The translations under genes and the position numbers were made by a program. This document shows, in pieces, positions 1-10,732 of a stretch of DNA of 10,732 bases; position 1 is the stretch's first letter, and each line of letters begins with the position of its first letter. The notes under the pieces are model-generated. The model did not search any database. It saw only the letters and a program-made list of their open reading frames with translations, and was not told the origin of the DNA. The DNA is from a virus (taxonomy: Duplodnaviria; Heunggongvirae; Uroviricota; Caudoviricetes), in IMG/VR virus record IMGVR_UViG_2541047163_000014; one strand, written 5' to 3'.

Positions 1-68
1 CGCACTGACGGTTTCATCGTGGGTGTCGGTTATAAGTTCTGATTAGCCAGGTAACACAGTGTTATGAC

Positions 69-96
69 AGCCCGCCGGTTCAGGCGGGCTTTTTTG
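69..96 (+). terminator. Rho-independent terminator (8-bp GC-rich stem AGCCCGCC/GGCGGGCT, 6-nt loop, followed by TTTTTT) ending the upstream off-window gene
   Basis: Perfect inverted repeat agcccgcc-ggttca-ggcgggct followed by a T6 run, read directly from the sequence immediately upstream of the tail fibre start. Confidence 0.75.
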
Positions 97-106
97 TGGG
101 GTGAAT

Positions 107-3022
107 ATGGCAGTAAAGATTTCAGGTGTACTGAAAGACGGCACAGGAAAACCAGTACAGAACTGCACCATTCAACTGAAAGCCAGACGTAACAGCGCCA
201 CGGTGGTGGTGAACACGGTGGCCTCTGAAAATCCGGATGAAGCCGGTCGTTACAGCATGGACGTTGAGTACGGTCAGTACAGCGTTATTCTGTTGGTGGA
301 AGGGTTCCCGCCGTCACATGCCGGGACCATCACCGTGTATGAAGATTCTCAACCCGGTACGCTGAATGATTTTCTTGGTGCCATGACTGAGGATGATGTC
401 CGTCCGGAGGCACTGCGCCGTTTTGAGCTGATGGTGGAAGAGGTGGCGCGTAACGCGTCCGCGGTGGCACAGAACACGGCAGCCGCGAAGAAGTCAGCCA
501 GCGATGCCAGCACATCAGCCCGTGAGGCGGCAACCCATGCGACTGATGCTGCGGACTCAGCACGCGCAGCCAGCACGTCAGCCGGACAGGCCGCGTCGTC
601 GGCTCAGTCAGCGTCTTCCAGCGCAGGAACGGCATCAACAAAGGCTACTGAAGCATCAAAAAGTGCTGCCGCTGCAGAGTCCTCAAAAAGCGCGGCGGCT
701 ACCAGTGCCGGTGCGGCGAAAACGTCAGAAACGAATGCGGCAGTGTCACAACAATCAGCCGCCACTTCTGCATCCACCGCGACCACGAAAGCGTCAGAAG
801 CTGCCTCCTCAGCCAGGGATGCGTCGGCTTCAAAAGAGGCGGCAAAATCATCAGAAACGAGCGCAGCCTCGAGCGCCAGTAGTGCAGCCTCCTCGGCAAC
901 GGCGGCAGGCAATTCCGCGAAGGCGGCCAAAACGTCTGAGACAAACGCTAAGTCCTCTGAAACGGCAGCAGAACAGAGTGCCTCCGCAGCAGCAGGCTCA
1001 AAAACAGCGGCTGCATTATCTGCCAGTGCCGCGTCAACAAGTGCCGGGCAGGCCTCAGCCAGTGCCACCGCCGCCGGAAAATCGGCAGAAAGTGCCGCAT
1101 CGTCTGCTTCAACAGCCACAACGAAGGCTGGCGAAGCCACTGAACAGGCCAGCGCAGCAGCGAGTTCTGCTTCCGCAGCGAAGACATCCGAAACGAACGC
1201 GAAAGCGTCGGAAACCAGCGCAGAATCCTCAAAAACGGCTGCCGCATCGTCAGCCAGTTCGGCGGCGTCATCGGCATCATCTGCGTCTGCTTCAAAAGAT
1301 GAGGCGACCAGACAAGCGTCAGCAGCGAAGAGCAGCGCCACGACGGCATCCACGAAGGCGACAGAGGCAGCTGGTAGTGCGACGGCAGCAGCTCAGAGCA
1401 AAAGTACGGCGGAATCTGCAGCAACGCGCGCTGAGACAGCGGCAAAACGGGCAGAGGATATTGCATCCGCCGTGGCGCTTGAGGATGCGAGCACGACGAA
1501 AAAGGGGATAGTACAGCTCAGCAGTGCGACTAACAGCACTTCCGAGTCACTGGCGGCAACGCCAAAAGCCGTTAAGGCCGCGTATGAGCTGGCTAACGGG
1601 AAATACACCGCACAGGATGCAACGACAGCACAGAAAGGGATAGTTCAGCTTAGCAACGCGACCAACAGCACATCTGAAATGCTGGCGGCAACGCCAAAGT
1701 CGGTAAAGGCAGCCTATGACCTTGCTAACGGGAAATATACTGCTCAGGACGCTACGACAGCACAAAAAGGAATTGTCCAGCTCAGTAGTGCAACCAACAG
1801 CGCATCTGAAACGCTTGCCGCGACACCGAAAGCAGTGAAAGCAGCTAATGATAATGCGAATGGTCGGGTACCTTCTGCCCGTAAGGTGAATGGTAAGGCG
1901 CTTTCATCGGATATAACACTGACGCCGAAAGATATTGGTACGCTTAACTCAACAACAATGTCATTCAGCGGTGGTGCTGGTTGGTTCAAATTAGCAACGG
2001 TAACCATGCCACAGGCGAGTTCTGTTGTTTCAATTACGTTGATTGGTGGCGCGGGATTTAACGTGGGGTCACCTCAACAGGCAGGTATATCTGAACTTGT
2101 TTTGCGTGCAGGTAATGGTAATCCGAAGGGGATTACTGGTGCTTTATGGCAGCGCACATCGACAGGGTTTACAAATTTTGCCTGGGTCAATACATCTGGT
2201 GATACTTACGATATTTACGTTGCAATCGGAAATTATGCGACTGGTGTAAATATTCAATGGGATTATACCAGTAATGCCAGCGTGACGATTCATACGTCAC
2301 CAGCATATTCTGCTAATAAGCCGGAAGGGTTAACGGACGGTACAGTTTATTCACTCTATACGCCATCAGAGCAGTTTTATCCGCCTGGCGCACCAATCCC
2401 GTGGCCATCAGATACCGTTCCGTCTGGCTATGCCCTGATGCAGGGGCAGACTTTTGACAAATCTGCATACCCGAAACTTGCAGCCGCTTATCCGTCAGGC
2501 GTGATCCCTGATATGCGTGGCTGGACGATTAAGGGCAAACCTGCCAGTGGTCGGGCCGTATTGTCTCAGGAACAGGACGGCATTAAATCGCACACCCACA
2601 GCGCCAGCGCATCCAGTACGGATTTGGGGACGAAAACCACATCGTCGTTTGATTACGGCACTAAATCCACGAATAACACCGGGGCGCACACGCACAGTGT
2701 GAGCGGTACAGCCGCAAGTGCCGGAAACCATACTCATAGTGTCACAGGCGCATCAGCAGTCAGCCAGTGGTCACAAAATGGGTCAGTACATAAGGTAGTG
2801 TCTGCGGCCAGTGTGAATACAAGTGCTGCAGGAGCGCACACTCATAGTGTCAGCGGCACAGCTGCATCTGCAGGTGCTCACGCACATACTGTCGGTATTG
2901 GTGCTCATACGCACTCTGTTGCGATTGGCTCACATGGACACACCATCACCGTTAACGCTGCGGGTAACGCGGAAAACACTGTCAAAAACATCGCATTTAA
3001 CTACATTGTGAGGCTTGCATAA
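107..3022 (+). CDS. stf: Side tail fibre protein, lambda Stf / StfR-like (the ORF track starts at GTG 101; ATG 107 giving [12 protein letters not shown] is the more likely start)
   Basis: N-terminus [26 protein letters not shown]...[34 protein letters not shown] matches the lambda Stf N-terminal domain as I remember it. It is followed by a long Ala/Ser/Thr-rich low-complexity shaft, three tandem ~42-aa repeats ([42 protein letters not shown]) and a C-terminal module with His-x-His repeats ([15 protein letters not shown]...) ending [11 protein letters not shown], typical of Stf / P2 gpH / T4 gp37-type fibre tips. GGGG lies upstream of the ATG. Confidence 0.93.
1490..1850 (+). repeat. Three tandem ~126-bp coding repeats (42-aa units) within stf
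   Basis: Protein-level triple repeat [43 protein letters not shown] / [44 protein letters not shown] / [30 protein letters not shown]. The DNA copies differ mostly at synonymous positions. Confidence 0.8.
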
Positions 3023-3600
3023 TGGCATTCAGAATGAGTGAACAACCACGGACCATAAAAATTTATAATCTGCTGACCGGAACTAATGAATTTATTGGTG
3101 AAGGTGACGCATATATTCCGCCTCATACAGGTCTGCCAGCAAACAGTACCTATATTGCACCGCCAGATATTCCGGCTGGCTTCGTGGCTGTTTTCAACAG
3201 TGATGAGGCATCGTGGCATCTCGTTGAAGATCATCGGGGTAAAACGGTTTATGACGTGGCTTCCGGCGACGCGTTATTTATTTCTGAACTCGGTCCGTTA
3301 CCGGAAAATGTTACCTGGTTGTCGCCGGATGGAGAGTGTCAGAAGTGGAACGGCACATCCTGGGCGAAAGATGCAGAAGCAGAAAAACTGTTTCGGGTAC
3401 GGGAGGCAGAAGAAACAAAAAACAGCCTGATGCAGGTAGCCAGTGAGCATATTGCGCCACTTCAGGATGCCGTAGATTTGGATATTGCGACGGAGGAAGA
3501 GGCATCGTTACTGGCTGCATGGAAGACATATCGGGTATTGTTGAATCGTGTTGATACAACAGTAGCAGCGGATGTTGAGTGGCCAGTCGCCCCACAATAA
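3022..3600 (+). CDS. tfa: Tail fibre assembly protein (Tfa family chaperone)
   Basis: 192-aa product directly downstream of stf, with the ATG overlapping the stf TAA stop (TAATG). The sequence ([49 protein letters not shown]...EWPVAPQ) resembles lambda/Rac-type Tfa proteins, and the position is the canonical one for a fibre chaperone. Confidence 0.88.
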
Positions 3601-3606
3601 AAAGAA

Positions 3607-3636
3607 AAAGCCATCGACAGAAATATCGATGGCTTT
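3607..3636. terminator. Bidirectional intrinsic terminator between convergent tfa (+) and the acetyltransferase gene (-)
   Basis: 11-bp perfect stem aaagccatcga / tcgatggcttt with an 8-nt loop. T-rich tracts flank it on both strands (CTTTTTCTTTTTATT on the - strand, TTTATGT on the + strand). Confidence 0.75.
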
Positions 3637-3643
3637 ATGTACT

Positions 3644-4216
3644 CTATTTATACAATACAACACCACTCTTTTTAGTTATATATGTGCAGTTTGATGGTAT
3701 ATCTTTATTTATAAAAGACATTGCACCTATTTTTACATTATCCCCAATTTTACGTGATAATCCAATGATGCAACAATTAGCTCCGATATCAACGTTACTA
3801 CCAATTTTTACTCTTGAACTAGGCATATCACCATCTATCTGTCCAATGGTAGTATTCTGTCGTAATACCAGATTTTCACCCGCATCAACAGCAAAATGAA
3901 CAACAATTCCAGCATGATGGGGAATTGTCAACCCTTTTCCAATATTTGCGCCCAATCCTATTTCACAACCAAACTTGTTAATTATTTTACTGTTTAACTT
4001 TTTGGCTGCTTTCTTATGTAATTTATTACCATTAATATACATTTCGTTAGCCAACCGCCACCAGAAAAGGAAATTCCGGTTACGCTGCTTTTTCTCTCTT
4101 AAAAGCCTCCAGATATCCATACGTTTCCGCCGAATTACTTCATGTTTCCAGAAGTTTTTTAAATTAGTAGAGTTTCCAAATAAAACAAAGTGAATTGCCA
4201 TTAAGTAAGATAGCAC
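3644..4216 (-). CDS. Hexapeptide-repeat (left-handed beta-helix) acetyltransferase, serine-acetyltransferase (CysE/WcaB)-like; AT-rich moron. Start probably GTG 4216 (AAGGAG 6 nt upstream) or ATG 4201; the ORF-track GTG at 4249 is less likely
   Basis: Translation contains the SAT-family core ...FWWRLANEMYINGNKLHKKAAKKLNSKIINKFGCEIGLGANIGKGLTIPHHAGIVVHFAVDAGENLVLRQNTTIGQIDGDMPSSRVKIGSNVDIGANCCIIGLSRKIGDNVKIGAMSFINKDIPSN. That is an amphipathic N-terminal helix segment followed by [LIV]-G-x-x-x-x hexapeptide repeats. G+C is strikingly low (roughly one-third by eye) compared with the flanking phage genes. Stop is TAG at 3644-3646. Confidence 0.8.
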   Translation of the reverse strand: MLSYLMAIHFVLFGNSTNLKNFWKHEVIRRKRMDIWRLLREKKQRNRNFLFWWRLANEMYINGNKLHKKAAKKLNSKIINKFGCEIGLGANIGKGLTIPHHAGIVVHFAVDAGENLVLRQNTTIGQIDGDMPSSRVKIGSNVDIGANCCIIGLSRKIGDNVKIGAMSFINKDIPSNCTYITKKSGVVLYK

Positions 4217-4267
4217 GATAATCTCCTTAATTATTATTTCAGACCACACATGTTATAAGGTTAAGAG

Positions 4268-4296
4268 ATTATAAAATCCTGTTATTTGTTATTCAA
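4268..4296 (-). promoter_or_regulatory. Near-consensus sigma70 promoter for the acetyltransferase gene (-35 TTGAAT, 17-bp spacer, -10 TATAAT on the - strand)
   Basis: Read on the - strand: TTGAAT-AACAAATAACAGGATTT-TATAAT, about 50 nt upstream of the AAGGAG ribosome-binding site and GTG 4216. Confidence 0.6.
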
Positions 4297-4372
4297 AAAC
4301 AATTTTCTGAGAAGGACATACAACAGCAAGTCGCCAGTCACCTTCATCAGGAAATTGGCGACATACGTTAAA

Positions 4373-4867
4373 TCAGAGCAGCCCCTTAACTGAGCTGGCC
4401 GCGCTATTAAGGGATGATGTCACCTTATCTTTGAAGCCGGACAGCATATCGCTGAACGATGAGGATTGCAGGCGCTCCCGCAAATCCTCATCACAGCGTT
4501 CAAGAGTCAGTGAAAATTCTATCTTTTTCGCCTTACCGTAGCGATCAAACTCGGAGCGGGTCGTATTCGTTCCGGTCAGGACATACATGCCGTAAATCTG
4601 CCCGACGCCATCAATCAAAGGCCAAGGACGTCCTGTATATGCCTGCGTGGTCAACAACGACAGCGACACTTCGCCACCAGTAATCTCAGGATAAAGAACA
4701 CCAGAAAGAACGATGCGATCATCACCTGCACCGATATACTGCCAGCTTGCTGAACGGTTAACGCGTTCATTTTTCACATGTCGCCAGCTTTTGTTTTGCT
4801 GTAACTGCTGATGCGGCAACGTGCGCAGCTCAAAAACAAACATGCCGTAGATCATCATCATGGCCAT
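4373..4867 (-). CDS. Phage tail protein, P2 gpU-like (true start may be one of the ATGs at 4861/4858 rather than 4867)
   Basis: Translation MAMMMIYGMFVFELRTLPHQQL...IVLSGVLYPEITGG...IYGMYVLTG...KIEFSLTLERCDE... matches the conserved gpU family pattern. It lies immediately downstream of the tape measure stop, as in the P2 FI-FII-E-T-U-D order. Confidence 0.85.
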   Translation of the reverse strand: MAMMMIYGMFVFELRTLPHQQLQQNKSWRHVKNERVNRSASWQYIGAGDDRIVLSGVLYPEITGGEVSLSLLTTQAYTGRPWPLIDGVGQIYGMYVLTGTNTTRSEFDRYGKAKKIEFSLTLERCDEDLRERLQSSSFSDMLSGFKDKVTSSLNSAASSVKGLL

Positions 4868-4873
4868 GACTCC

Positions 4874-5710
4874 TCAATCTTTATCGTAAAAACTGCCACG
4901 CCTGGCACGGGCGCGCCGTTCCATTTCTGCCCTGACCATTTCGCCGACCAGTTTCGCCAGTTCGCGGGGATTCTGCGTAACAACGTTATGCAGATGAACA
5001 TGAATTTCACCGCCAAATCCGGAGGCAACAGGCTCCCGGTTACGGGAAGTTGCAGGAACTGATGCCACTGGCGATCGTATGGCCTCCACCACCGGGCGGG
5101 AGCTGGCCGCAACAACAGGGACCAGCGCCGGAGGCAGCGGAGCCGGGACCACGGGTGTGATATTAATTGCGGGGGCAGGCTTACTGACCTGCGCAATCTT
5201 CCGCTCCTGCCACTCCCCACGAACAGCAAGTGCGCGGGGCAGGTTCTTAAAGACAATATCGCCGGGGCCAATGCGTTTTTTTGTCTCATCAACCAGCTTA
5301 CCTGTGTTATCAGCAATTTTGCTGAGTCTGCGTAGCGTGCCGGTATTGCTGTCTGTGAGAGGTTTGTTGTCTTTGGGTTTATCATCTCCGGTGCCATTGC
5401 TATTTCCCGCAGACTTCGGCGGATTGATTTTCGCAATGTCTCCCTGAAACAGAGCAACCTTGTCCTGAAGAATGGCCGCACGTTGTGCGTCTTCGATTTT
5501 CTTGCGCGCCCTTTCCGCTTCATCCGGAAGCACACCGAGTTTTTCAAGTATCCACGCCAGCGTATCCAGCAACATTTTTGCAGGCGTCAGAACAAGCTGT
5601 AACGCACCACCAAGAACGTTACCGAATACCTCGCCAGCACTGGTACATTTATCCAGCGTTTCCTTGCTGGACTCCATCGGTGACAGCAGCGATTTAAACC
5701 AGTTAAACAC
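4874..5710 (-). CDS. Tail tape measure protein, C-terminal about 280 codons in a different frame (continuation of the gpT-like gene after the apparent frameshift)
   Basis: This ORF overlaps the 3' end of the 5587..7713 ORF in another frame. Its sequence (FNWFKSLLSPMESSKETLDKCTSAGEVFGNVLGGALQLV...) continues naturally from ...FERFGPVFDVIGSG if one base is restored near 5719-5721. It ends 6 nt before the gpU start. P2-type operons have no separate gene between T and U. Confidence 0.75.
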   Translation of the reverse strand: MFNWFKSLLSPMESSKETLDKCTSAGEVFGNVLGGALQLVLTPAKMLLDTLAWILEKLGVLPDEAERARKKIEDAQRAAILQDKVALFQGDIAKINPPKSAGNSNGTGDDKPKDNKPLTDSNTGTLRRLSKIADNTGKLVDETKKRIGPGDIVFKNLPRALAVRGEWQERKIAQVSKPAPAINITPVVPAPLPPALVPVVAASSRPVVEAIRSPVASVPATSRNREPVASGFGGEIHVHLHNVVTQNPRELAKLVGEMVRAEMERRARARRGSFYDKD

Positions 5711-7713
5711 CTGGCTGAACCGCTTCCGATTACGTCAAAAACAGGGCCAAACCGTTCAAAGGTGTCGCGCAACGGGGTCAGCCTTTCCATAATCCCGCTG
5801 AACACCCCGGCAAAGAAAGCCCTGATAGGATCCCAGTATTTCCAGATAAGAACGGCAGCTCCGGCAAGCGCAGCCACGATAAGACCAACCGGACTGAACA
5901 ACGCCCCGATAACGCCTCCCAGTAAAGAAACGGAACCCGTCACCATTCCCCATAGCGCAGGTAACACCCTGACGACATTCATTGACCGGGTAAGAATGTC
6001 AAAACCAAGACGCAGGGTGGCCAGCTTCCCGTAAAGCACCCCAATAACCAGCGACAACGAGCCAATCGTTGCAGTCATTGCCAGCAACGCACCGCCTGCT
6101 ATCAGTAGCTGGCGCGTCAGTACCGGATGGGCCTGCGCCAGCGAGGTGATTTTTTCAAGCACCCGCGTGAGCCACTGCGTGACAGAACGCAGCGGACCGT
6201 CAACCAGATCACTGATGCGAATACGAAGACCTTCCCATGCGCTGTCGAGATTTTTCAGGTCCCCATCAAGATTATCAGCCATTACTTTTGCGACGCGATC
6301 GGCCTCTCCCCTTGCCCCCTGCAATTCTCTGGTCAGTTTTTGCAGCTCTCCTGAACCAGCCGCCGCAACAAGCGTCTGCAAACCAACGAACGCCTCTTCT
6401 CCGGCGATGTCCTTGAAGAAGGAGACCTGGTCCACCTGTCCGTATTTTTGTGTCGCCTTATAGAGATCAAGCAGCACATCCTCCATCGGGCGCATTTTGC
6501 CTCTGGCGTCAGCAACTGACACCCCCAGCTCTTTCAGTGCATCAGCCGCAGCTTTTGGCGGTGATGCAAGGCGGGACAGACTTGCGCGCATGGCCGTGCC
6601 AGCATCGCTTCCGCGAAGACCATTATTGGCAAGCATCCCGGCCATGGCCGCCGCTTCTTCAAGACTGATACCAAGTTTTGCGGCAACCGGACCGGTATAC
6701 TTCATGGTTTCGCCCAGCGCGCGTAAATCAGTATTGGTCCGGGTAAATGCTGCTGTCAGCGTATCGCCCACCCGGTCCATTTGATCGGCTGTCAGGTTGA
6801 ACTGTGTGAGGATATTGGAGCCTATATCAGCCGTCTCGCCGAGTTCGACGCCACCTGCCAGCGCCATATTAAGAACACCGGGCAATGCGGCCTGAATGGC
6901 CTGCGGAGTAAAACCAGCCATTGCCAGAAAGCTCTGCCCACTGGCGGCATCACTCGCAGTAAACTGTGTTTCAGCAAGTTTTAACGCCTGCTCACGCAGC
7001 GCCTTAAACTGCGGGCTGTTTTTGTCGATTCGCGTCAGTGCCTGAACGCGGGACATCTCTTTGCCGAACCCGATCGCAGGCTGCAAAAAACGCCCGGCAG
7101 CATAGCCGCCCGCCGCTGCCGCACCAATTGCCAGCGCACCACCTGTTTTCAGTTTTCCCGCGGTTTCCTGCGCGTGCGAATACCGCTCACGCGCCTGCGT
7201 TACACGCGCAAGCGCCTGCCGTTCGCGTTCAAGCTGGTTGTTGTATTGTTCGGTGCGTCTGATGGCCTGCTGAATGGTGTTATCGCTGCCTGTCAGGGAA
7301 ATGCCGTGGCGTTTCAGCTCTCCGCCAAGTTCCCTCATTTTCTGAATTTCCCGTGTGCGCGATTCATTCAGGCGTTCAAGCCGGGTGCTTAACTGCTGCA
7401 TCAGCTTTTGTTGTTTTTCGCTGAGCACTGTACCCGTGCGTTGTAACTGATTAAGGGCGTTAAGCTGGCGTCGTGCTTTCACGATGCCAGCATCCGCTTT
7501 ACTGACAGCGTCGCGGGCGCGCTCAAATGATCGCGCCTGACGCTCGAGATTTTTGATCGCCCCCTGCGTTCGCTGGATGGAGTCACCAAACTGCCCCATC
7601 AGGCGGCGTGCGTTTTCGGCAGGTCGGGTCAGCCTGTCAACGGCGCTGAAAGCGACCCGGATATCAAGAGTCTTCATTGTCTGCATTCCCGCTGCGAAGT
7701 GCCGCCCGCTCAC
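5587..7713 (-). CDS. Tail tape measure protein (P2 gpT-like), N-terminal about 660 codons; the reading frame breaks near 5715-5740 (likely start ATG 7677 or 7686 rather than GTG 7713)
   Basis: Long, helical, Ala/Leu/Gln/Arg-rich protein with a hydrophobic Gly-rich segment (LIAGGALLAMTATIGSLSLVIGVLYG...GGVIGALFSPVGLIVAALAGAAVLIW) typical of tape measure proteins, positioned between E' and U. The last ~45 residues of this ORF (SARCLTGLNRCCHRWSPARKRW...) look like out-of-frame translation. Confidence 0.8.
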   Translation of the reverse strand: MSGRHFAAGMQTMKTLDIRVAFSAVDRLTRPAENARRLMGQFGDSIQRTQGAIKNLERQARSFERARDAVSKADAGIVKARRQLNALNQLQRTGTVLSEKQQKLMQQLSTRLERLNESRTREIQKMRELGGELKRHGISLTGSDNTIQQAIRRTEQYNNQLERERQALARVTQARERYSHAQETAGKLKTGGALAIGAAAAGGYAAGRFLQPAIGFGKEMSRVQALTRIDKNSPQFKALREQALKLAETQFTASDAASGQSFLAMAGFTPQAIQAALPGVLNMALAGGVELGETADIGSNILTQFNLTADQMDRVGDTLTAAFTRTNTDLRALGETMKYTGPVAAKLGISLEEAAAMAGMLANNGLRGSDAGTAMRASLSRLASPPKAAADALKELGVSVADARGKMRPMEDVLLDLYKATQKYGQVDQVSFFKDIAGEEAFVGLQTLVAAAGSGELQKLTRELQGARGEADRVAKVMADNLDGDLKNLDSAWEGLRIRISDLVDGPLRSVTQWLTRVLEKITSLAQAHPVLTRQLLIAGGALLAMTATIGSLSLVIGVLYGKLATLRLGFDILTRSMNVVRVLPALWGMVTGSVSLLGGVIGALFSPVGLIVAALAGAAVLIWKYWDPIRAFFAGVFSGIMERLTPLRDTFERFGPVFDVIGSGSARCLTGLNRCCHRWSPARKRWINVPVLARYSVTFLVVRYSLF

Positions 7714-8193
7714 GCCAGCTAACCACTTCGCCGGGCGTCATCATGAAGATTTCGGCGGGCGACCAGTTAAAAATAACGGCAATATCTGCCACAAAGTCTT
7801 CTATGTGCTCAAAGCACACAACCGTGATCAGGCTTCCGTCGCCTGTTCGTTCTTCCCGCCAGAGTCCGCACCGCTCAAAAAATTTACGGCAACCACACAT
7901 AACTGAATAAAGTCACGGGATGCCATTTTTTTGATCGTCACTTCATCCAGTCGCGGTGATGTCACGCGTGACAGCAGCGTAAACATGGATTCCGCTTTCA
8001 GATTCAGCACATCAGACAGCGACAAATCTCGCAGAGATCCAGCCTGCTCAATAGCCCCGGTGATCTCCACATACGTGATTTTTTCGCCGCCTCGCTCAAT
8101 TGGTTGGGTAAGTTTTACACCACGCTCACTGGTTTCTTTCACAGTGTCAGTAACTACCGTGTTTTCGGTATCGATGTTTTTCGTCTCTTTCAT
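7664..8193 (-). CDS. gpE+E'-like fusion product made by programmed -1 translational frameshift (E' extension 7664..7875 in the -1 frame)
   Basis: A -1 frame ORF (7664..7900) overlaps the end of E. On the - strand the sequence AAT TTT TTG contains the slippery heptamer T TTT TTG. The -1 frame continues ...KFFERCGLWREERTGDGSLITVVCFEHIEDFVADIAVIFNWSPAEIFMMTPGEVVSWRERAALRSG, resembling the conserved E' tail. Confidence 0.75.
7828..8193 (-). CDS. Tail assembly chaperone, P2 gpE-like
   Basis: 121-aa ORF between the tube and tape measure genes, with AAGGAG 7 nt upstream of the ATG. The C-terminus ...CVVAVNFLSGADSGGKNEQATEA spans the slippery heptamer. Confidence 0.8.
   Translation of the reverse strand: MKETKNIDTENTVVTDTVKETSERGVKLTQPIERGGEKITYVEITGAIEQAGSLRDLSLSDVLNLKAESMFTLLSRVTSPRLDEVTIKKMASRDFIQLCVVAVNFLSGADSGGKNEQATEA
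7876..7882 (-). other. Slippery heptamer TTTTTTG (- strand) for the E/E' -1 programmed ribosomal frameshift
   Basis: + strand caaaaaa at 7876-7882 is TTTTTTG on the - strand, in X XXY YYZ register with the E frame (AAT TTT TTG). Confidence 0.75.
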
Positions 8194-8247
8194 CAGGAAA
8201 CTCCTTTCAGTCAGAGGCGACGCACTGCGCCGCCTGCATATTACTTA

Positions 8248-8760
8248 TCAGCCAAGCCCAAGCGCGGAACGGATGCGATCGGGCACAATGTCCTTGCCGT
8301 CCTTCCGGTAAATGAAGTTCAGCAGGTCAATCTCCCACAACGGGCGATCGTTAACACTCAGCTTGTAGTAGGTGTTTTTAATGGCGTAAGTGTGTGATGT
8401 GGCTTCGCCCTGTTTGGCTTCCCCCATATCAATTTCCGTCACACGTCCGCGCATTTCGACTTCATACAGGTCGCTTTCATCATCGGTGTAGTATTCCCCC
8501 GCAAAACGCAGTAGCGTGCCGTCAATCGTGCCGCCATACTTCAGGAACAGCTCACGAACTGCGCCCCCCATGACAAAGCTCGCATCAAGCGCGGAGTCGT
8601 CCAGGCCGAGGTCAATACTTACCGCACCCATCATGCCACCACCCCGGTAGCTGTCGGTTTTGCGCGTCAGTTTAGGCAGGGTGACGGACGTCACCTTACC
8701 CACTTCGTTTTCACCATCCACAAACAGCGTAAAAAAGCGAAGATGTTTTGGTACAGCCAT
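8248..8760 (-). CDS. Tail tube protein, P2 gpFII-like
   Basis: Translation MAVPKHLRFFTLFVDGENEVGKVTSVTLPKLTRKTDSYRGGGMMGAVSIDLGLDD...YYKLSVNDRPLWEIDLLNFIYRKDG matches the FII tube family pattern (RFFTL.VDG...YRGGGM...YYKLS...EID). The start overlaps the sheath stop (ATGA-type coupling). Confidence 0.9.
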   Translation of the reverse strand: MAVPKHLRFFTLFVDGENEVGKVTSVTLPKLTRKTDSYRGGGMMGAVSIDLGLDDSALDASFVMGGAVRELFLKYGGTIDGTLLRFAGEYYTDDESDLYEVEMRGRVTEIDMGEAKQGEATSHTYAIKNTYYKLSVNDRPLWEIDLLNFIYRKDGKDIVPDRIRSALGLG

Positions 8761-9944
8761 CAGGCACCTCCCAGCACCGCAAATGCGGGACCAAAGAATT
8801 CATCAGTAAACGACTGGTAAAGCTCCATGTCTTCCAGCGGAGGAACGGGCGTATATTTGTAGCGAATACGCACACGCCCCTGACGTAAATTCGTGGTGCT
8901 GTTATCCTCGATGTCATACCAGCACTCCGCGCCAATCAGTTTCCCGGCAGTAACCAGTGAATCCAGTTTTGCCCTGATGGCACTGATAACATCCTTCACG
9001 TTCGCAGGTGTCAGTGGACTGTCGATGGTTTCAAACTGCGCTTCCGCAATTGAATCAGCCAGCACCTGTGCGGTTCGGGTATACACCTCAAAGATGTAGG
9101 CGTTCGTTTCCGGTGTGCGGTTGCCCCAGAAGCGGAACCCGTTGCGACGAATAATGGTCGTGATTTCTTTGTTGTTGAGGCTGTTGGCATCACTGTCTTC
9201 GGCCTGCAACGACCAGAACACATGCCTCGACATCCCAAGCACATTTTTAACCGGAACGTTGGACAGCGATTTGTGCCAGCCCTGCTCATGGTCAATGTAC
9301 GCACGAAGGCCGCACGCATAAGCAGGCGCGGGGAACGTTTCGTTTTTGCCACTTTTCAGGTTGTAGGCGATGAAGTCAGGCCATAAGAGCATCACCTCAC
9401 GTTCGTTGAATTTCTGGCGGTAGGTAATCGCCTCAGCCATCGTGTTACAACCATGACATGTGGCATACACAAACGCGCGCAGTTTACCCGCAATCACGCA
9501 CAGGGATTTTGTTACCGCCTCCGTGTCCAGCTCCGGCGCGGCCAGAATACGCGGACGGTATCCGATGCTTTCATCCTGCTCTGCAACAAGCAGCGCATAC
9601 ATCCCCGTATAGCTGCCGTCAGATTCAGAACCACCGATAACCAGTTGATCCTGCGTCTTACCGCCTTCTTCTTTGTGTTCAGCCACGCGAACGACGATCA
9701 CTTTTGTGCTCACCTGGTCTGCGATAGCCTTAAGCGCACGATAAAGCGTCCCCGTAGTCCCGCATTTTCCCAGCACGTCATTGACGCGGGTCAGCAGTGT
9801 GGGCTTGTTCAGCGGGAACAGCTCCGCGTCCGCATCATCTGCCGTTGCCACGATACCGATAACACTGGAATCAACATCATTAATCGCTGTTACCAGGTCG
9901 GTACTTTCCGTAACACGGGCACCATGAAAACGAGTTTCACTCAT
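8760..9944 (-). CDS. Contractile tail sheath protein, P2 gpFI-like
   Basis: 394-aa product (MSETRFHGARVTESTDLVTAINDVDSSVIGIVATADDADAELFPLNKPTLLTRVNDVLGKCGTTGTLYRALKAIADQ...) resembling P2 FI-family sheath proteins. AAGGGG ribosome-binding site 8 nt upstream of the ATG. It lies immediately upstream of the tube gene. Confidence 0.9.
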   Translation of the reverse strand: MSETRFHGARVTESTDLVTAINDVDSSVIGIVATADDADAELFPLNKPTLLTRVNDVLGKCGTTGTLYRALKAIADQVSTKVIVVRVAEHKEEGGKTQDQLVIGGSESDGSYTGMYALLVAEQDESIGYRPRILAAPELDTEAVTKSLCVIAGKLRAFVYATCHGCNTMAEAITYRQKFNEREVMLLWPDFIAYNLKSGKNETFPAPAYACGLRAYIDHEQGWHKSLSNVPVKNVLGMSRHVFWSLQAEDSDANSLNNKEITTIIRRNGFRFWGNRTPETNAYIFEVYTRTAQVLADSIAEAQFETIDSPLTPANVKDVISAIRAKLDSLVTAGKLIGAECWYDIEDNSTTNLRQGRVRIRYKYTPVPPLEDMELYQSFTDEFFGPAFAVLGGA

Positions 9945-10101
9945 AGCTTCAGCCCCTTGTATCCGTTAAATGATTCGGCAACAATCATCACCCACCACGC
10001 GCGTAATCTCACCCCTGCGCCGTTCTCCCGCCACGGCGACAACAAAAAGCAGTAACCCCCTCCGCACGCACATGCGACCATGCCGCACAGGGAGGGAACA
10101 G

Positions 10102-10368
10102 ATGACCGACACCACCATGCAATTGCTCAGTCAGGGCACAGACCACGTGAAAGTGCCGGATTTTGATATTCTCGCGGAGGGTAAAACGCTGTCAGGCGTG
10201 GCAGAGCGCCTGATGAGCCTGTCACTGACCGACAACCGGGGATTTGAGGCGGACCAGCTCACCATCACGCTGGATGATGCAGATGGTCAGTTGCAGCTAC
10301 CGCCACGGGGCGCGCGCCTGACGGTTCTCATTGGCTGGAAAGGAGAACCGCTGACAGAAAAAGGCACT
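10102..10368 (+). pseudogene. P2 gpD-like tail protein (late control gene D family), N-terminal ~90 codons only; truncated by IS insertion
   Basis: From ATG 10102 (GGGAGGGA upstream): MTDTTMQLLSQGTDHVKVPDFDILAEGKTLSGVAERLMSLSLTDNRGFEADQLTITLDDADGQLQLPPRGARLTVLIGWKGEPLTEKG, which contains the gpD-family N-terminal signature (LSLT.TDNRGFEADQL.I.LDD.DG...PRRGA.L...GW.G). The frame then runs into IS terminal inverted-repeat sequence at about 10369 and stops. Full-length gpD is about 390 aa. Confidence 0.75.
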
Positions 10369-10519
10369 TGTAGATTCAATCTGTCAATGCAACACCCCTT
10401 TCAATTATCTCTTTCGGTGTTTTGAACTTCAGTGTCTTTCTCGGTCTGTTGTTTAGCTGAGCAGCAACCAGATCTTCATGTTGAGTATATTGGGCAAGAC
10501 ATGTCTTTTTAGGAAAGTA
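10369..10519 (-). mobile_element. IS30-family insertion sequence, terminal fragment (inverted repeat plus the last ~47 codons of the transposase gene)
   Basis: TGTAGATTCAATCTGTCAATGCAACACC at 10369 closely resembles the IS30 terminal inverted repeat (TGTAGATTCAAT.GGTCAA.GCAAC) as I remember it. The - strand encodes ...YFPKKTCLAQYTQHEDLVAAQLNNRPRKTLKFKTPKEIIERGVALTD-stop, with the stop inside the inverted repeat, as in IS30-family transposases. The fragment ends abruptly at the IS3-family end. Confidence 0.7.
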
Positions 10520-10732
10520 TGAACCGCCCCGGTTTTCCTGGAGAGTGTTTTATCTGTGAACTCAGGCTGCCAGATCATCGTTTCCGATGGAAGCATAATA
10601 AGCTTTTTCTGCTTCTGCCGGAGGAGTATGGCCCAGCCTTCCCAGCAATCGTCGATTGTTATACCAGTCCACCCACGTTAGTGTGGCCAGTTCCACTTCT
10701 GCACGGTTTTTCCAGCTCTTACGGTGTATTAC
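10520..10732 (-). mobile_element. IS3-family element (IS629/IS1203-like), terminal inverted repeat plus 3' end of transposase orfB; continues beyond the window
   Basis: The end sequence TGAACCGCCCCGG... is a typical IS3-family terminal inverted repeat (TG...). The - strand encodes ...VIHRKSWKNRAEVELATLTWVDWYNNRRLLGRLGHTPPAEAEKAYYASIGNDDLAA-stop (stop at 10562-10564), a typical IS3-family orfB C-terminus. Confidence 0.75.

Follow-up and report, generated by a model that had tools for sequence, protein, structure and literature searches.

Since the early 1990s, mosaic tail fibers that join modules of lambda Stf, P2 H, and T4 gp37 have been standard textbook content. In Ur-lambda, the side tail fiber Stf is a trimer present as four fibers per virion, and it makes adsorption faster; its gpStfN collar domain attaches to the tail where gpV meets gpM, and a coiled-coil rod, a hinge, and OmpC binding have been described as well (PMC12617516). 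Lambda Stf chimeras fused at amino acid 393 or 528 are functional (PMC11338833). In T4 gp37, the needle has seven iron sites bound by HxH motifs, and the residues that contact LPS/OmpC are carried by amino acids 932–959 (PMC6957217). Within the RBP family, the last ~215 amino acids are conserved, with divergence centered on the specificity region (PMC9659904).

The window analyzed here is the whole of a 10,732-nucleotide stretch of viral DNA (IMG/VR record IMGVR_UViG_2541047163_000014). An open reading frame at 101/107–3022 on the plus strand was confirmed in it, and the RefSeq start in the orthologous O157:H7 locus is the ATG at 107. The resulting side tail fiber gene, stf (107–3022), specifies 971 amino acids plus a stop codon, and is identified by its open reading frame, its Pfam architecture, and its near-identity to a RefSeq protein; it also matches PHROG tail-fiber families. 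Six parts were distinguished in the protein: an N-terminal domain, a shaft, Phage_fiber_2 repeats, a module of lower GC content, a collar, and a gp37-type needle. Directly 5’ of stf in lambdoid context is the 3’ end of lom (1–42, plus strand), an Ail/Lom outer-membrane protein gene, and stf is followed by tfa (3022–3600, plus strand), which encodes the tail fiber assembly chaperone (PF02413, E 6e-40). This is the gene order of lambda Stf-type fibers, and in complete genomes the orthologous locus reads L-K-I-J-lom-stf-tfa.

The protein is already known and has been recorded from hundreds of O157:H7 genomes. RefSeq WP_000268883.1, from O157:H7 lambdoid prophages, has the same length and architecture and is identical at 970 of 971 residues (Q18E is the sole difference), with 2 nucleotide differences in 3207. 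The J-lom-stf-tfa locus of O157:H7 ATCC 35150, in which 64 nucleotides lie between the end of lom and the start of stf, aligns with window positions 1–3587 free of gaps, and at least 80% of window 1–3600 is contained in 1360 of 5426 complete E. coli genomes. By the standard of an earlier, sequence-only reading, uniform full-length similarity to a single known fiber with no break in composition would speak against its proposal. In one sense such similarity exists, to WP_000268883.1, but the composition discontinuity remains. Very probably, positions 107–3022 are the side tail fiber gene of a lambdoid prophage from the O157:H7 lineage of E. coli, a recombinational patchwork whose product would work as its Ur-lambda Stf and T4 gp37 homologs do. 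As a discovery this ordinary mosaic prophage side tail fiber matters little. The prophage may be defective, in which case the fiber may never be assembled.

Beyond stf, the window departs from this locus. In complete O157:H7 genomes an intact lambdoid tfa and then host genes come after stf, whereas in the window P2-like tail genes come instead, with an acetyltransferase gene located beyond 3644. The tfa of the window, whose product is 88% identical to lambda Tfa and 29% identical to T4 gp38, is a hybrid, with amino acids 1–61 of the lambdoid allele and 63–192 of the P2-like allele. The pattern of mismatches places the switch from lambdoid prophage (left) to P2-like remnant (right) at 3203–3207: alignment to the O157 lambdoid locus gives 2 mismatches for 1–3207 and 40 for 3208–3587, and alignment to the P2-like remnant of O157:H7 F7349 gives neither mismatches nor gaps over 3203–10732. 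The right part of the contig is an IS-riddled P2-like remnant. A junction inside stf, considered on account of megablast matches to P2-like prophages from 1511, was rejected by SNP mapping: the P2-like H genes are 92–95% identical over 1511–2665, and up to 3207 the lambdoid copy has 99.94% identity.

Most likely, the join arose as a chimera during assembly. The alternative is that a lambdoid prophage and a P2-like remnant recombined through tfa, producing the hybrid gene and a chromosomal rearrangement, which we consider unlikely. Recombination between prophages is documented in O157:H7. The switch falls between diagnostic SNPs at 3202 and 3208, only 6 nucleotides apart, an arrangement that heteroduplex with patchy repair could give but that is out of reach for a simple k-mer graph path starting from the reference alleles. 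However, each half has a 99.9–100% identical counterpart in ordinary O157:H7 genomes, at two separate loci, and neither the join nor the hybrid tfa was found in any of the 5426 complete genomes. In F7349 about 946 kb separate the two loci, which lie in direct orientation, and a real join would therefore mark a deletion; from E. coli gene order, loss of this interval would presumably take out essential genes. The window is moreover an entire draft contig of short length with a repeat at either end (lom at one, IS at the other), and chimeric-looking fragments are frequent in the database for the Stf gene family. Finally, the P2-like tfa of O157:H7 is interrupted by IS629 at window position 3067, which leaves only 136 nucleotides of private sequence, a short branch of the type that assemblers clip. 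With an assembly chimera as the preferred reading, the contig is no evidence for linkage between a lambda-type fiber and contractile tail genes of the P2 type; the apparent linkage is most likely an artifact of assembly. The join has no effect on stf. The hybrid tfa may not exist in the cell, and its doubtful status makes the complete genomes the better source of the cognate chaperone (WP_000885629.1).

The N-terminal attachment domain (amino acids 1–134; 107–508, plus strand) belongs to phage_tail_N (PF08400, E 9e-73), as in lambda Stf-type side tail fibers, and amino acids 1–94 match the solved Ur-lambda gpStfN chain (PDB 9e7m/9mgh, E 2.8e-52). By protein BLAST, this end of the protein is 72% identical to lambda orf-401 (amino acids 1–404) and 96% identical to StfR (amino acids 1–496). 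The shaft that follows (amino acids 135–455; 509–1471, plus strand) is evident from composition, being 75% Ala, Ser, and Thr, and from alignment to orf-401 and StfR; by analogy, its counterpart in lambda Stf would be the proximal rod, a trimeric coiled coil. A lambda Stf-like N-terminus and a long Ala/Ser/Thr-rich shaft were both named in the sequence-only reading, and the modular character it gave the gene is borne out by the Pfam architecture and by the segment boundaries described below.

Three Phage_fiber_2 repeats (PF03406) occupy amino acids 462–590 (1490–1876, plus strand) and match the structure of Mu S (5yvq). Tandem repeats of ~42 residues are the mark of Phage_fiber_2 fibers, which include Mu S, P2 H, and lambda Stf. 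The triple 42-amino acid repeat proposed earlier is correct as to three copies of a 42-residue Pfam motif but not as to its period, which Tandem Repeats Finder gave as 132 nucleotides (44 amino acids; 1500–1845, 2.6 copies, 78% matches). Protein BLAST with P2 H showed 39% identity over amino acids 460–697 and 65% over 504–615. Membership in the P2 gpH family was rejected, as P2 H matches in the repeat region only and the N-terminus has no match.

The DNA comparisons show that stf is a real mosaic whose central segment was horizontally exchanged. StfR of the K-12 Rac prophage and stf of phage 2H10 match window positions 1–1587 and 2387–3586 by blastn, and P2-like H matches 1511–2665 and from 2885 onward. 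The boundaries of these segments delimit an exchanged central cassette at 1588–2386 (plus strand), which is common to the P2-like fiber gene H and absent from the DNA of lambda, StfR, and 2H10. Lambda matches 1–1014, 1320–1577, 2380–2665, and 2873–3584, with no DNA match to 1578–2379 and no protein match to roughly amino acids 500–757, in keeping with the earlier observation that the center is unlike lambda. Identity of the central segment to H genes of P2-like prophages is 92–95% at the DNA level, and across window 1511–2665 it is 94.7–94.9% to H of E. coli 55989 and DEC5E. That the central module was acquired horizontally, as had also been proposed, is supported by this identity together with its absence from lambda, StfR, and 2H10. 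The fiber gene combines an N-terminal half of the Rac StfR/2H10 type, a cassette (1588–2386) of the P2-like myovirus H type, and a needle and tip of the 2H10 type. The joints of the mosaic lie in the conserved Phage_fiber_2 repeat on the left and in the collar on the right. The Collar domain (amino acids 758–812; 2378–2542, plus strand; PF07484, with the Pfam match at amino acids 761–808) is conserved across all relatives compared, with identities of 87–100% in lambda, T4, StfR, 2H10, and P2-like H.

The relatives share different portions of this architecture. StfR and 2H10 Stf have the N-terminal domain, shaft, and first repeat of the window protein (DNA 1–1587 is ~94.5% identical), as well as its collar and needle, but differ in having an unrelated and longer center (the proteins total 1117–1120 amino acids), and the StfR tip is only 26% identical. 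Ur-lambda Stf, which is split into orf-401 and orf-314 in lambda PaPa, likewise has gpStfN, shaft, collar, and an HxH needle (72% identity over amino acids 1–404 and 69% over 758–971; 88% for Tfa). Lambda lacks the central cassette, however; additional FDYGTK and HxH repeats are present in it, and its tip is longer and different (26%). P2-like H of the P88/Xuanwuvirus type, such as that of 55989, has the same repeats, center, and collar (~95% DNA identity over 1511–2665), but carries a P2-type baseplate-binding N-terminus in place of the lambda Stf domain. The tip of its needle is different (11%), and the second HxH motif of the window protein (amino acids 861–863) has no aligned counterpart there.

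The gp37-type needle (amino acids 813–971; 2543–3019, plus strand) is recognized by homology to PDB 2XGF and by its histidine positions. Stf amino acids 744–971 align with T4 gp37 799–1026 with 67% identity over 228 amino acids (E 2.5e-88), and Pfam reports a Phage_fiber (HxH) match. The seven HxH motifs (amino acids 829, 861, 875, 911, 925, 934, and 943) are all in register with the seven of T4 gp37, which confirms the earlier assignment of a T4 gp37-type C-terminal H-x-H region; by analogy, they would bind metal, with about seven ions per trimer. Homology over the last ~215–230 amino acids, the seven motifs, and a gp38/Tfa-type gene downstream are features of the gp37/lambda Stf tip family. 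T4 gp37 has a similar collar and needle and such a downstream gene, but its tip subdomain is only 11% identical, its remainder is unrelated, and Stf of the window would attach as a siphovirus side fiber and not via gp36.

Alignment to T4 gp37 932–959 places the predicted receptor-contact region in a tip subdomain at amino acids 878–904 (2738–2818, plus strand). This subdomain is 100% identical in 2H10, 26% in lambda and StfR, 11% in T4, and 4–11% in P2-like H, and is likely the specificity determinant, judged by analogy. As the lambda tip differs from that of the window protein, its receptor OmpC cannot be assumed for the latter. For host-range prediction and the design of Stf chimeras, amino acids 878–904 are the likely specificity element.

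These homologies suggest how the fiber may work. Stf would trimerize from its C-terminus, assisted by Tfa, and amino acids 1–94 of the N-terminal domain would dock as a collar at the junction of tail tube and tip. The Ala/Ser/Thr-rich segment would form a long coiled-coil rod, and beyond it the Phage_fiber_2 repeats, central knob, and collar would connect to a six-stranded needle stabilized by metal ions on the seven HxH motifs. The tip at the apex (amino acids 878–904) would be the first to touch a surface receptor, in a reversible contact that speeds adsorption.

The knob is the lower-GC portion of the cassette (amino acids 591–757; 1877–2377, plus strand) and is located immediately upstream of the collar. 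It has no match among PDB sequences even at E≤10. An AF2 monomer model, of moderate confidence (pLDDT 76.6), has an all-β fold forming a compact β-sandwich, and Foldseek matched this model to T-even Gp37 proteins and to tailspike and EPS-depolymerase proteins. The top match was WceF (6tgf), with target coordinates absent from the output. WceF has a C-terminal jelly-roll sandwich at residues 531–667 (PMC7949094). A match to the N-terminal domains of WceF was considered and dropped, as the only size-matched all-β domain of WceF is the C-terminal one. The model points to a β-sandwich resembling those of tailspike-like proteins, and our assignment goes this far.

The sequence-only reading took the AT-rich center to be a receptor-binding module whose acquisition changed host range. 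The knob does have properties expected of such a module: it is a globular, portable β-sandwich with its own composition, similar folds occur in glycan-binding tailspike and EPS-depolymerase proteins, and it has clearly been exchanged between sipho- and myovirus prophages. Its position argues otherwise, being proximal to the collar and away from the fiber end, and in T4 gp37 the mapped receptor contacts are all in the tip subdomain (PMC6957217). The needle and tip of the window protein (amino acids 813–971) are 100% identical to those of 2H10 while the central parts are unrelated (12% over the aligned amino acids 702–757); conversely, the knob stretch at 702–757 is 100% identical to that of 55989 P2-like H while the tips differ (11%). 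Judged from these pairs, knob and tip assort independently. An alignment of knob homologs also shows the module preceding several kinds of distal end; these homologs are mostly short partial fragments, usable for alignment and poor for full architectures.

Lying upstream of the collar and assorting independently of the tip, the module is improbable as the receptor-binding part, and we consider it probably a portable structural knob. There is a slim chance that it is a second exchangeable binding site, for a surface glycan for example, working alongside the gp37-type tip; such fibers would then have a two-part specificity code shuffled between sipho- and myovirus prophages. For chimera design, the knob is a separable cassette, flanked by the conserved repeat on one side and by the collar, likewise conserved, on the other.

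The center is indeed AT-richer, as the sequence-only reading had noted, and the peptide strings it quoted are present in the translation. In 300-nucleotide windows, GC content is 0.447–0.487 across about 1700–2500, compared with about 0.60 in the shaft. The contrast between shaft (0.60) and knob (0.45) is inflated, because shaft GC is driven by GC2, that is, by amino acid composition. The knob (amino acids 591–757) has a GC content of 0.451, and its GC3 is 0.365, compared with 0.51 elsewhere in stf (Fisher p=7e-4); in shuffles, a 167-codon window had GC3 as low as this in 0.36% of cases. That the shift reflects only the amino acids of the Ala-rich shaft and is uninformative about exchange fits the shaft itself (GC 0.606 arising from GC2 0.80, with GC3 at the gene average, 0.49), but is highly improbable and largely refuted by the GC3 of the knob (permutation 0.0036) and by the breakpoints at 1587/1588 and 2386/2387, which with 95% DNA identity to P2-like H show the exchange directly.

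The side tail fibre gene stf (positions 107–3022, + strand; a GTG at 101 is an alternative start) encodes a protein of 971 amino acids. At its N-terminus is a phage_tail_N domain (amino acids 1–134; Pfam, E 9e-73), followed by an Ala/Ser/Thr-rich shaft (amino acids 135–455, 75% Ala+Ser+Thr), three Phage_fiber_2 repeats from amino acid 462, a Collar domain (amino acids 761–808), and a match to the HxH 'Phage_fiber' repeat (all by Pfam). Seven HxH motifs are present, at amino acids 829, 861, 875, 911, 925, 934, and 943. Every element named in a sequence-only reading of the gene was found in stf by Pfam, composition, repeat finder, or GC windows. The 'triple 42-amino acid repeat' of that reading does consist of three repeats, but Tandem Repeats Finder detects a 132-nt period across 1500–1845, giving a repeat unit of 44 amino acids; the Pfam motif itself spans 42 residues.

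By protein BLAST, amino acids 1–496 are 96% identical to StfR of the K-12 Rac prophage and amino acids 1–404 are 72% identical to lambda orf-401, while amino acids 758–971 are 69% identical to lambda orf-314 and amino acids 744–971 are 67% identical to T4 gp37 (residues 799–1026). P2 gpH has only the repeat region in common with the fibre (amino acids 460–697, 39%). Comparison with solved structures further bears out both the proposed lambda-type N-terminus and the proposed gp37-type tip: amino acids 1–94 match a 94-residue chain of 9e7m/9mgh named 'Tail fiber protein' (E 2.8e-52), and amino acids 744–971 match the T4 gp37 tip (2XGF, E 2.5e-88), in an alignment that pairs every one of the seven HxH motifs. 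The repeats match Mu S (5yvq), and the collar matches the T4 short fibre (9cuy).

At the DNA level, the segment boundaries in stf are sharp. Matches to StfR and phage 2H10 cover 1–1587 and 2387–3586, and those to lambda cover 1–1014, 1320–1577, 2380–2665, and 2873–3584. P2-like prophages (E. coli 55989 and DEC5E) match through their fibre gene H, at about 95% over 1511–2665 and again from 2885. These boundaries define a central cassette (1588–2386) that is foreign to the lambda/StfR/2H10 lineage and common to myovirus-type prophages. They are direct evidence of horizontal exchange, outweighing the argument from composition, and they agree with the earlier description of a modular mosaic whose exchanged central segment is unlike lambda. 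One mosaic joint falls within the conserved Phage_fiber_2 repeat and the other within the collar, which is likewise conserved. These natural joints are consistent with the finding that lambda Stf accepts foreign C-terminal segments joined to it at amino acid 393 or 528 (PMC11338833).

The discontinuity in composition is real but modest. GC falls from ~0.60 in the shaft to 0.447–0.487 in windows covering about 1700–2500, confirming an AT-richer central segment. The high GC of the shaft is largely GC2 (0.80, with GC3 only 0.49), since C occupies the second position in codons for Ala, Ser, and Thr. Beyond such amino acid effects, GC3 is still low in the central module (amino acids 591–757, positions 1877–2377), at 0.365 as compared to 0.51 in the remaining gene (Fisher p=7e-4); a 167-codon window with GC3 this low occurred in 0.36% of shuffles. 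A further low-GC3 stretch (0.36) lies over the needle tip region (50-codon windows from amino acids 876 and 901). Antisense to the shaft are long ORFs of up to 249 amino acids (604–1353, − strand, and neighbours), and the draft annotation lists one of them as a gene; these look like compositional artefacts of GCN-rich repeats and are comparable to lambda orf206b.

The central module has no match in Pfam and no relative in a PDB sequence search, and is a member of PHROG tail-fibre families. Its homologues come from E. coli, E. albertii, and Salmonella, with one further record labelled Pseudomonas aeruginosa, and have in common a conserved core of ~135 amino acids, downstream of which their distal ends differ. 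An AlphaFold2 model from the homologue alignment is all-β, with about ten strands (mean pLDDT 76.6; several 10-residue blocks of the core at 85–94). Foldseek located this fold in T-even Gp37 proteins (e.g., Shigella phage JK38, TMq 0.70), an Acinetobacter phage fibre, and many EPS-depolymerase tailspikes. The top PDB structural match is tailspike-like WceF (TMq 0.57), whose eight-stranded jelly-roll sandwich matches the module in size (PMC7949094). By tblastn, the module, collar, and gp37-type needle (amino acids 813–971) occur together in some Tequatrovirus fibre genes (e.g., BCH953P2, amino acids 626–971 at 52%). We conclude that the central module is a portable knob, with a predicted β-sandwich fold, immediately proximal to the collar.

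The needle of T4 gp37 is composed of a stem (residues 882–931 and 960–1009) and a tip subdomain (932–959); its HxH motifs hold seven iron atoms, and the mapped LPS and OmpC contact residues are all within the tip subdomain (PMC6957217). The counterpart of this subdomain by alignment is amino acids 878–904, over which the fibre is 100% identical to phage 2H10, 26% to lambda and to StfR, 11% to T4, and 4–11% to P2-like H proteins. On either side of it, the stem shows 74–100% conservation. Needle and tip are 100% identical to those of phage 2H10 over amino acids 813–971, yet the central parts of the two fibres are unrelated (12% identity over the aligned amino acids 702–757); H of 55989 is 100% identical over that part of the knob but has a different tip (11%). 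Knob and tip thus assort independently of each other. Divergence in the T4/lambda RBP family occurs in a specificity region of the last ~215 amino acids (PMC9659904). By analogy, specificity probably resides in the tip subdomain (amino acids 878–904), and OmpC should not be assumed to be the receptor. The sequence-only reading had taken the AT-rich module to be the receptor-binding module and had deduced a host-range change; given the location of the T4 contacts, the divergence within the family, and the independent assortment of knob and tip, this step is unsupported.

In Ur-lambda, a collar built from residues 1–94 of twelve Stf chains sits at the gpV/gpM junction and gives rise to four trimeric fibres. 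Each fibre continues through a flexible linker, then a proximal coiled coil and a hinge, into a distal part that terminates in a receptor-binding domain resembling gp37; these fibres bind OmpC and speed adsorption but are non-essential (PMC12617516). By homology, the fibre encoded by stf most likely works along these lines. Tfa proteins reportedly bind the fibre C-terminus through a variable N-terminal domain, and their conserved C-terminal domain is said to promote assembly, beginning at that terminus.

The gene is already catalogued, its mosaicism is of the classical kind, and the feature is ordinary. Q18E is the sole difference from RefSeq WP_000268883.1, and at least 80% of 1–3600 is present in 1360 of 5426 complete E. 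coli genomes. The J-lom-stf-tfa lambdoid locus of many O157:H7 genomes forms one ungapped alignment with 1–3587 (98.8%), with two mismatches in 1–3207 and forty in 3208–3587.

The window spans the whole of draft contig AVQS01000076.1 (10,732 bp; assembly GCA_000461955.2). Positions 3203–10732 are 100% identical, with zero gaps, to a P2-like prophage remnant in O157:H7 F7349, including the frameshift in the tape-measure gene and the gpD::IS30::IS1203 terminus. The tfa gene of that remnant is interrupted by an IS3-family element at window position 3067, and at each of the four differences in 3076–3202 the window has the lambdoid allele. This identity, along with the mismatch pattern, indicates that the contig switches source at 3203–3207, within tfa (3022–3600, + strand, 192 amino acids), which thereby encodes a hybrid (amino acids 1–61 lambdoid, 63–192 P2-like). 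The fibre gene is wholly on the lambdoid side of the switch and is unaffected by the join.

The contig is likely to be an assembly chimera. Repeats bound it at each end, and the private P2-like branch is only 136 nt. The join was not found in any complete genome searched, nor did any match 2950–3293 at 100%. The parental loci in F7349 (3.066 Mb and 2.12 Mb) are on the same strand, so the junction would imply a deletion of about 946 kb; by E. coli gene order, this would take out essential genes. These observations make a real recombinant in the strain rather improbable, although such an event, or a collapsed-repeat consensus, is favoured by a switch between diagnostic sites just 6 nt apart, an interval not expected from a simple k-mer path through reference alleles. 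Apparent chimeras are also frequent among database fragments of this fibre gene family, which suggests that the family is a frequent site of mis-joins in draft assemblies, in line with a chimeric contig. 'Partial' database proteins P0007, P0020, P0033, P0043, and P0097–P0100 have knob/collar pieces fused to unrelated domains, including terminase Nu1 and antiterminator.

Upstream of stf are the final 42 nt of lom (+ strand). Downstream of tfa is a low-GC hexapeptide/serine acetyltransferase gene (3644–4216, − strand, longest ORF to 4249; GC 0.34, GC3 0.29) belonging to PHROG 2154, a family without assigned function; it is probably lysogenic-conversion cargo of the P2-like prophage family. Its location between tfa and gpU is the site of the Z/fun moron in P2. 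The P2-type tail genes gpU, split tape-measure gene, gpE/E', tube, and sheath follow on the − strand, and a truncated gpD runs into IS sequence on the + strand. A 1-nt deletion at 5719, relative to strain 493/89, splits the tape-measure gene (4874–7713, − strand) into two overlapping ORFs. The lesion recurs in F7349, where it is flagged 'frameshifted'; it is thus not a sequencing error, and the gene is a true pseudogene in a defective prophage. An IS30 end truncates gpD at 10369/10370 (region 9970–10732). Near 10520, IS1203/IS629 in turn breaks into this IS30 end, and the contig stops within the IS; the nested arrangement matches F7349 at 100%. Some P2-like relatives have a macro-domain gene between H and tfa (9620–10522 in the O157:H- 493/89 locus, L001), which the window lacks. 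As compared to phage P2, the FI-FII-E-E'-T-U block of this family is inverted (4373–10425 in the window; 3476–13694 in the E. coli 55989 locus, L010), with H-G converging on U and gpD diverging from the sheath gene, and the inversion also occurs in the apparently intact 55989 prophage.
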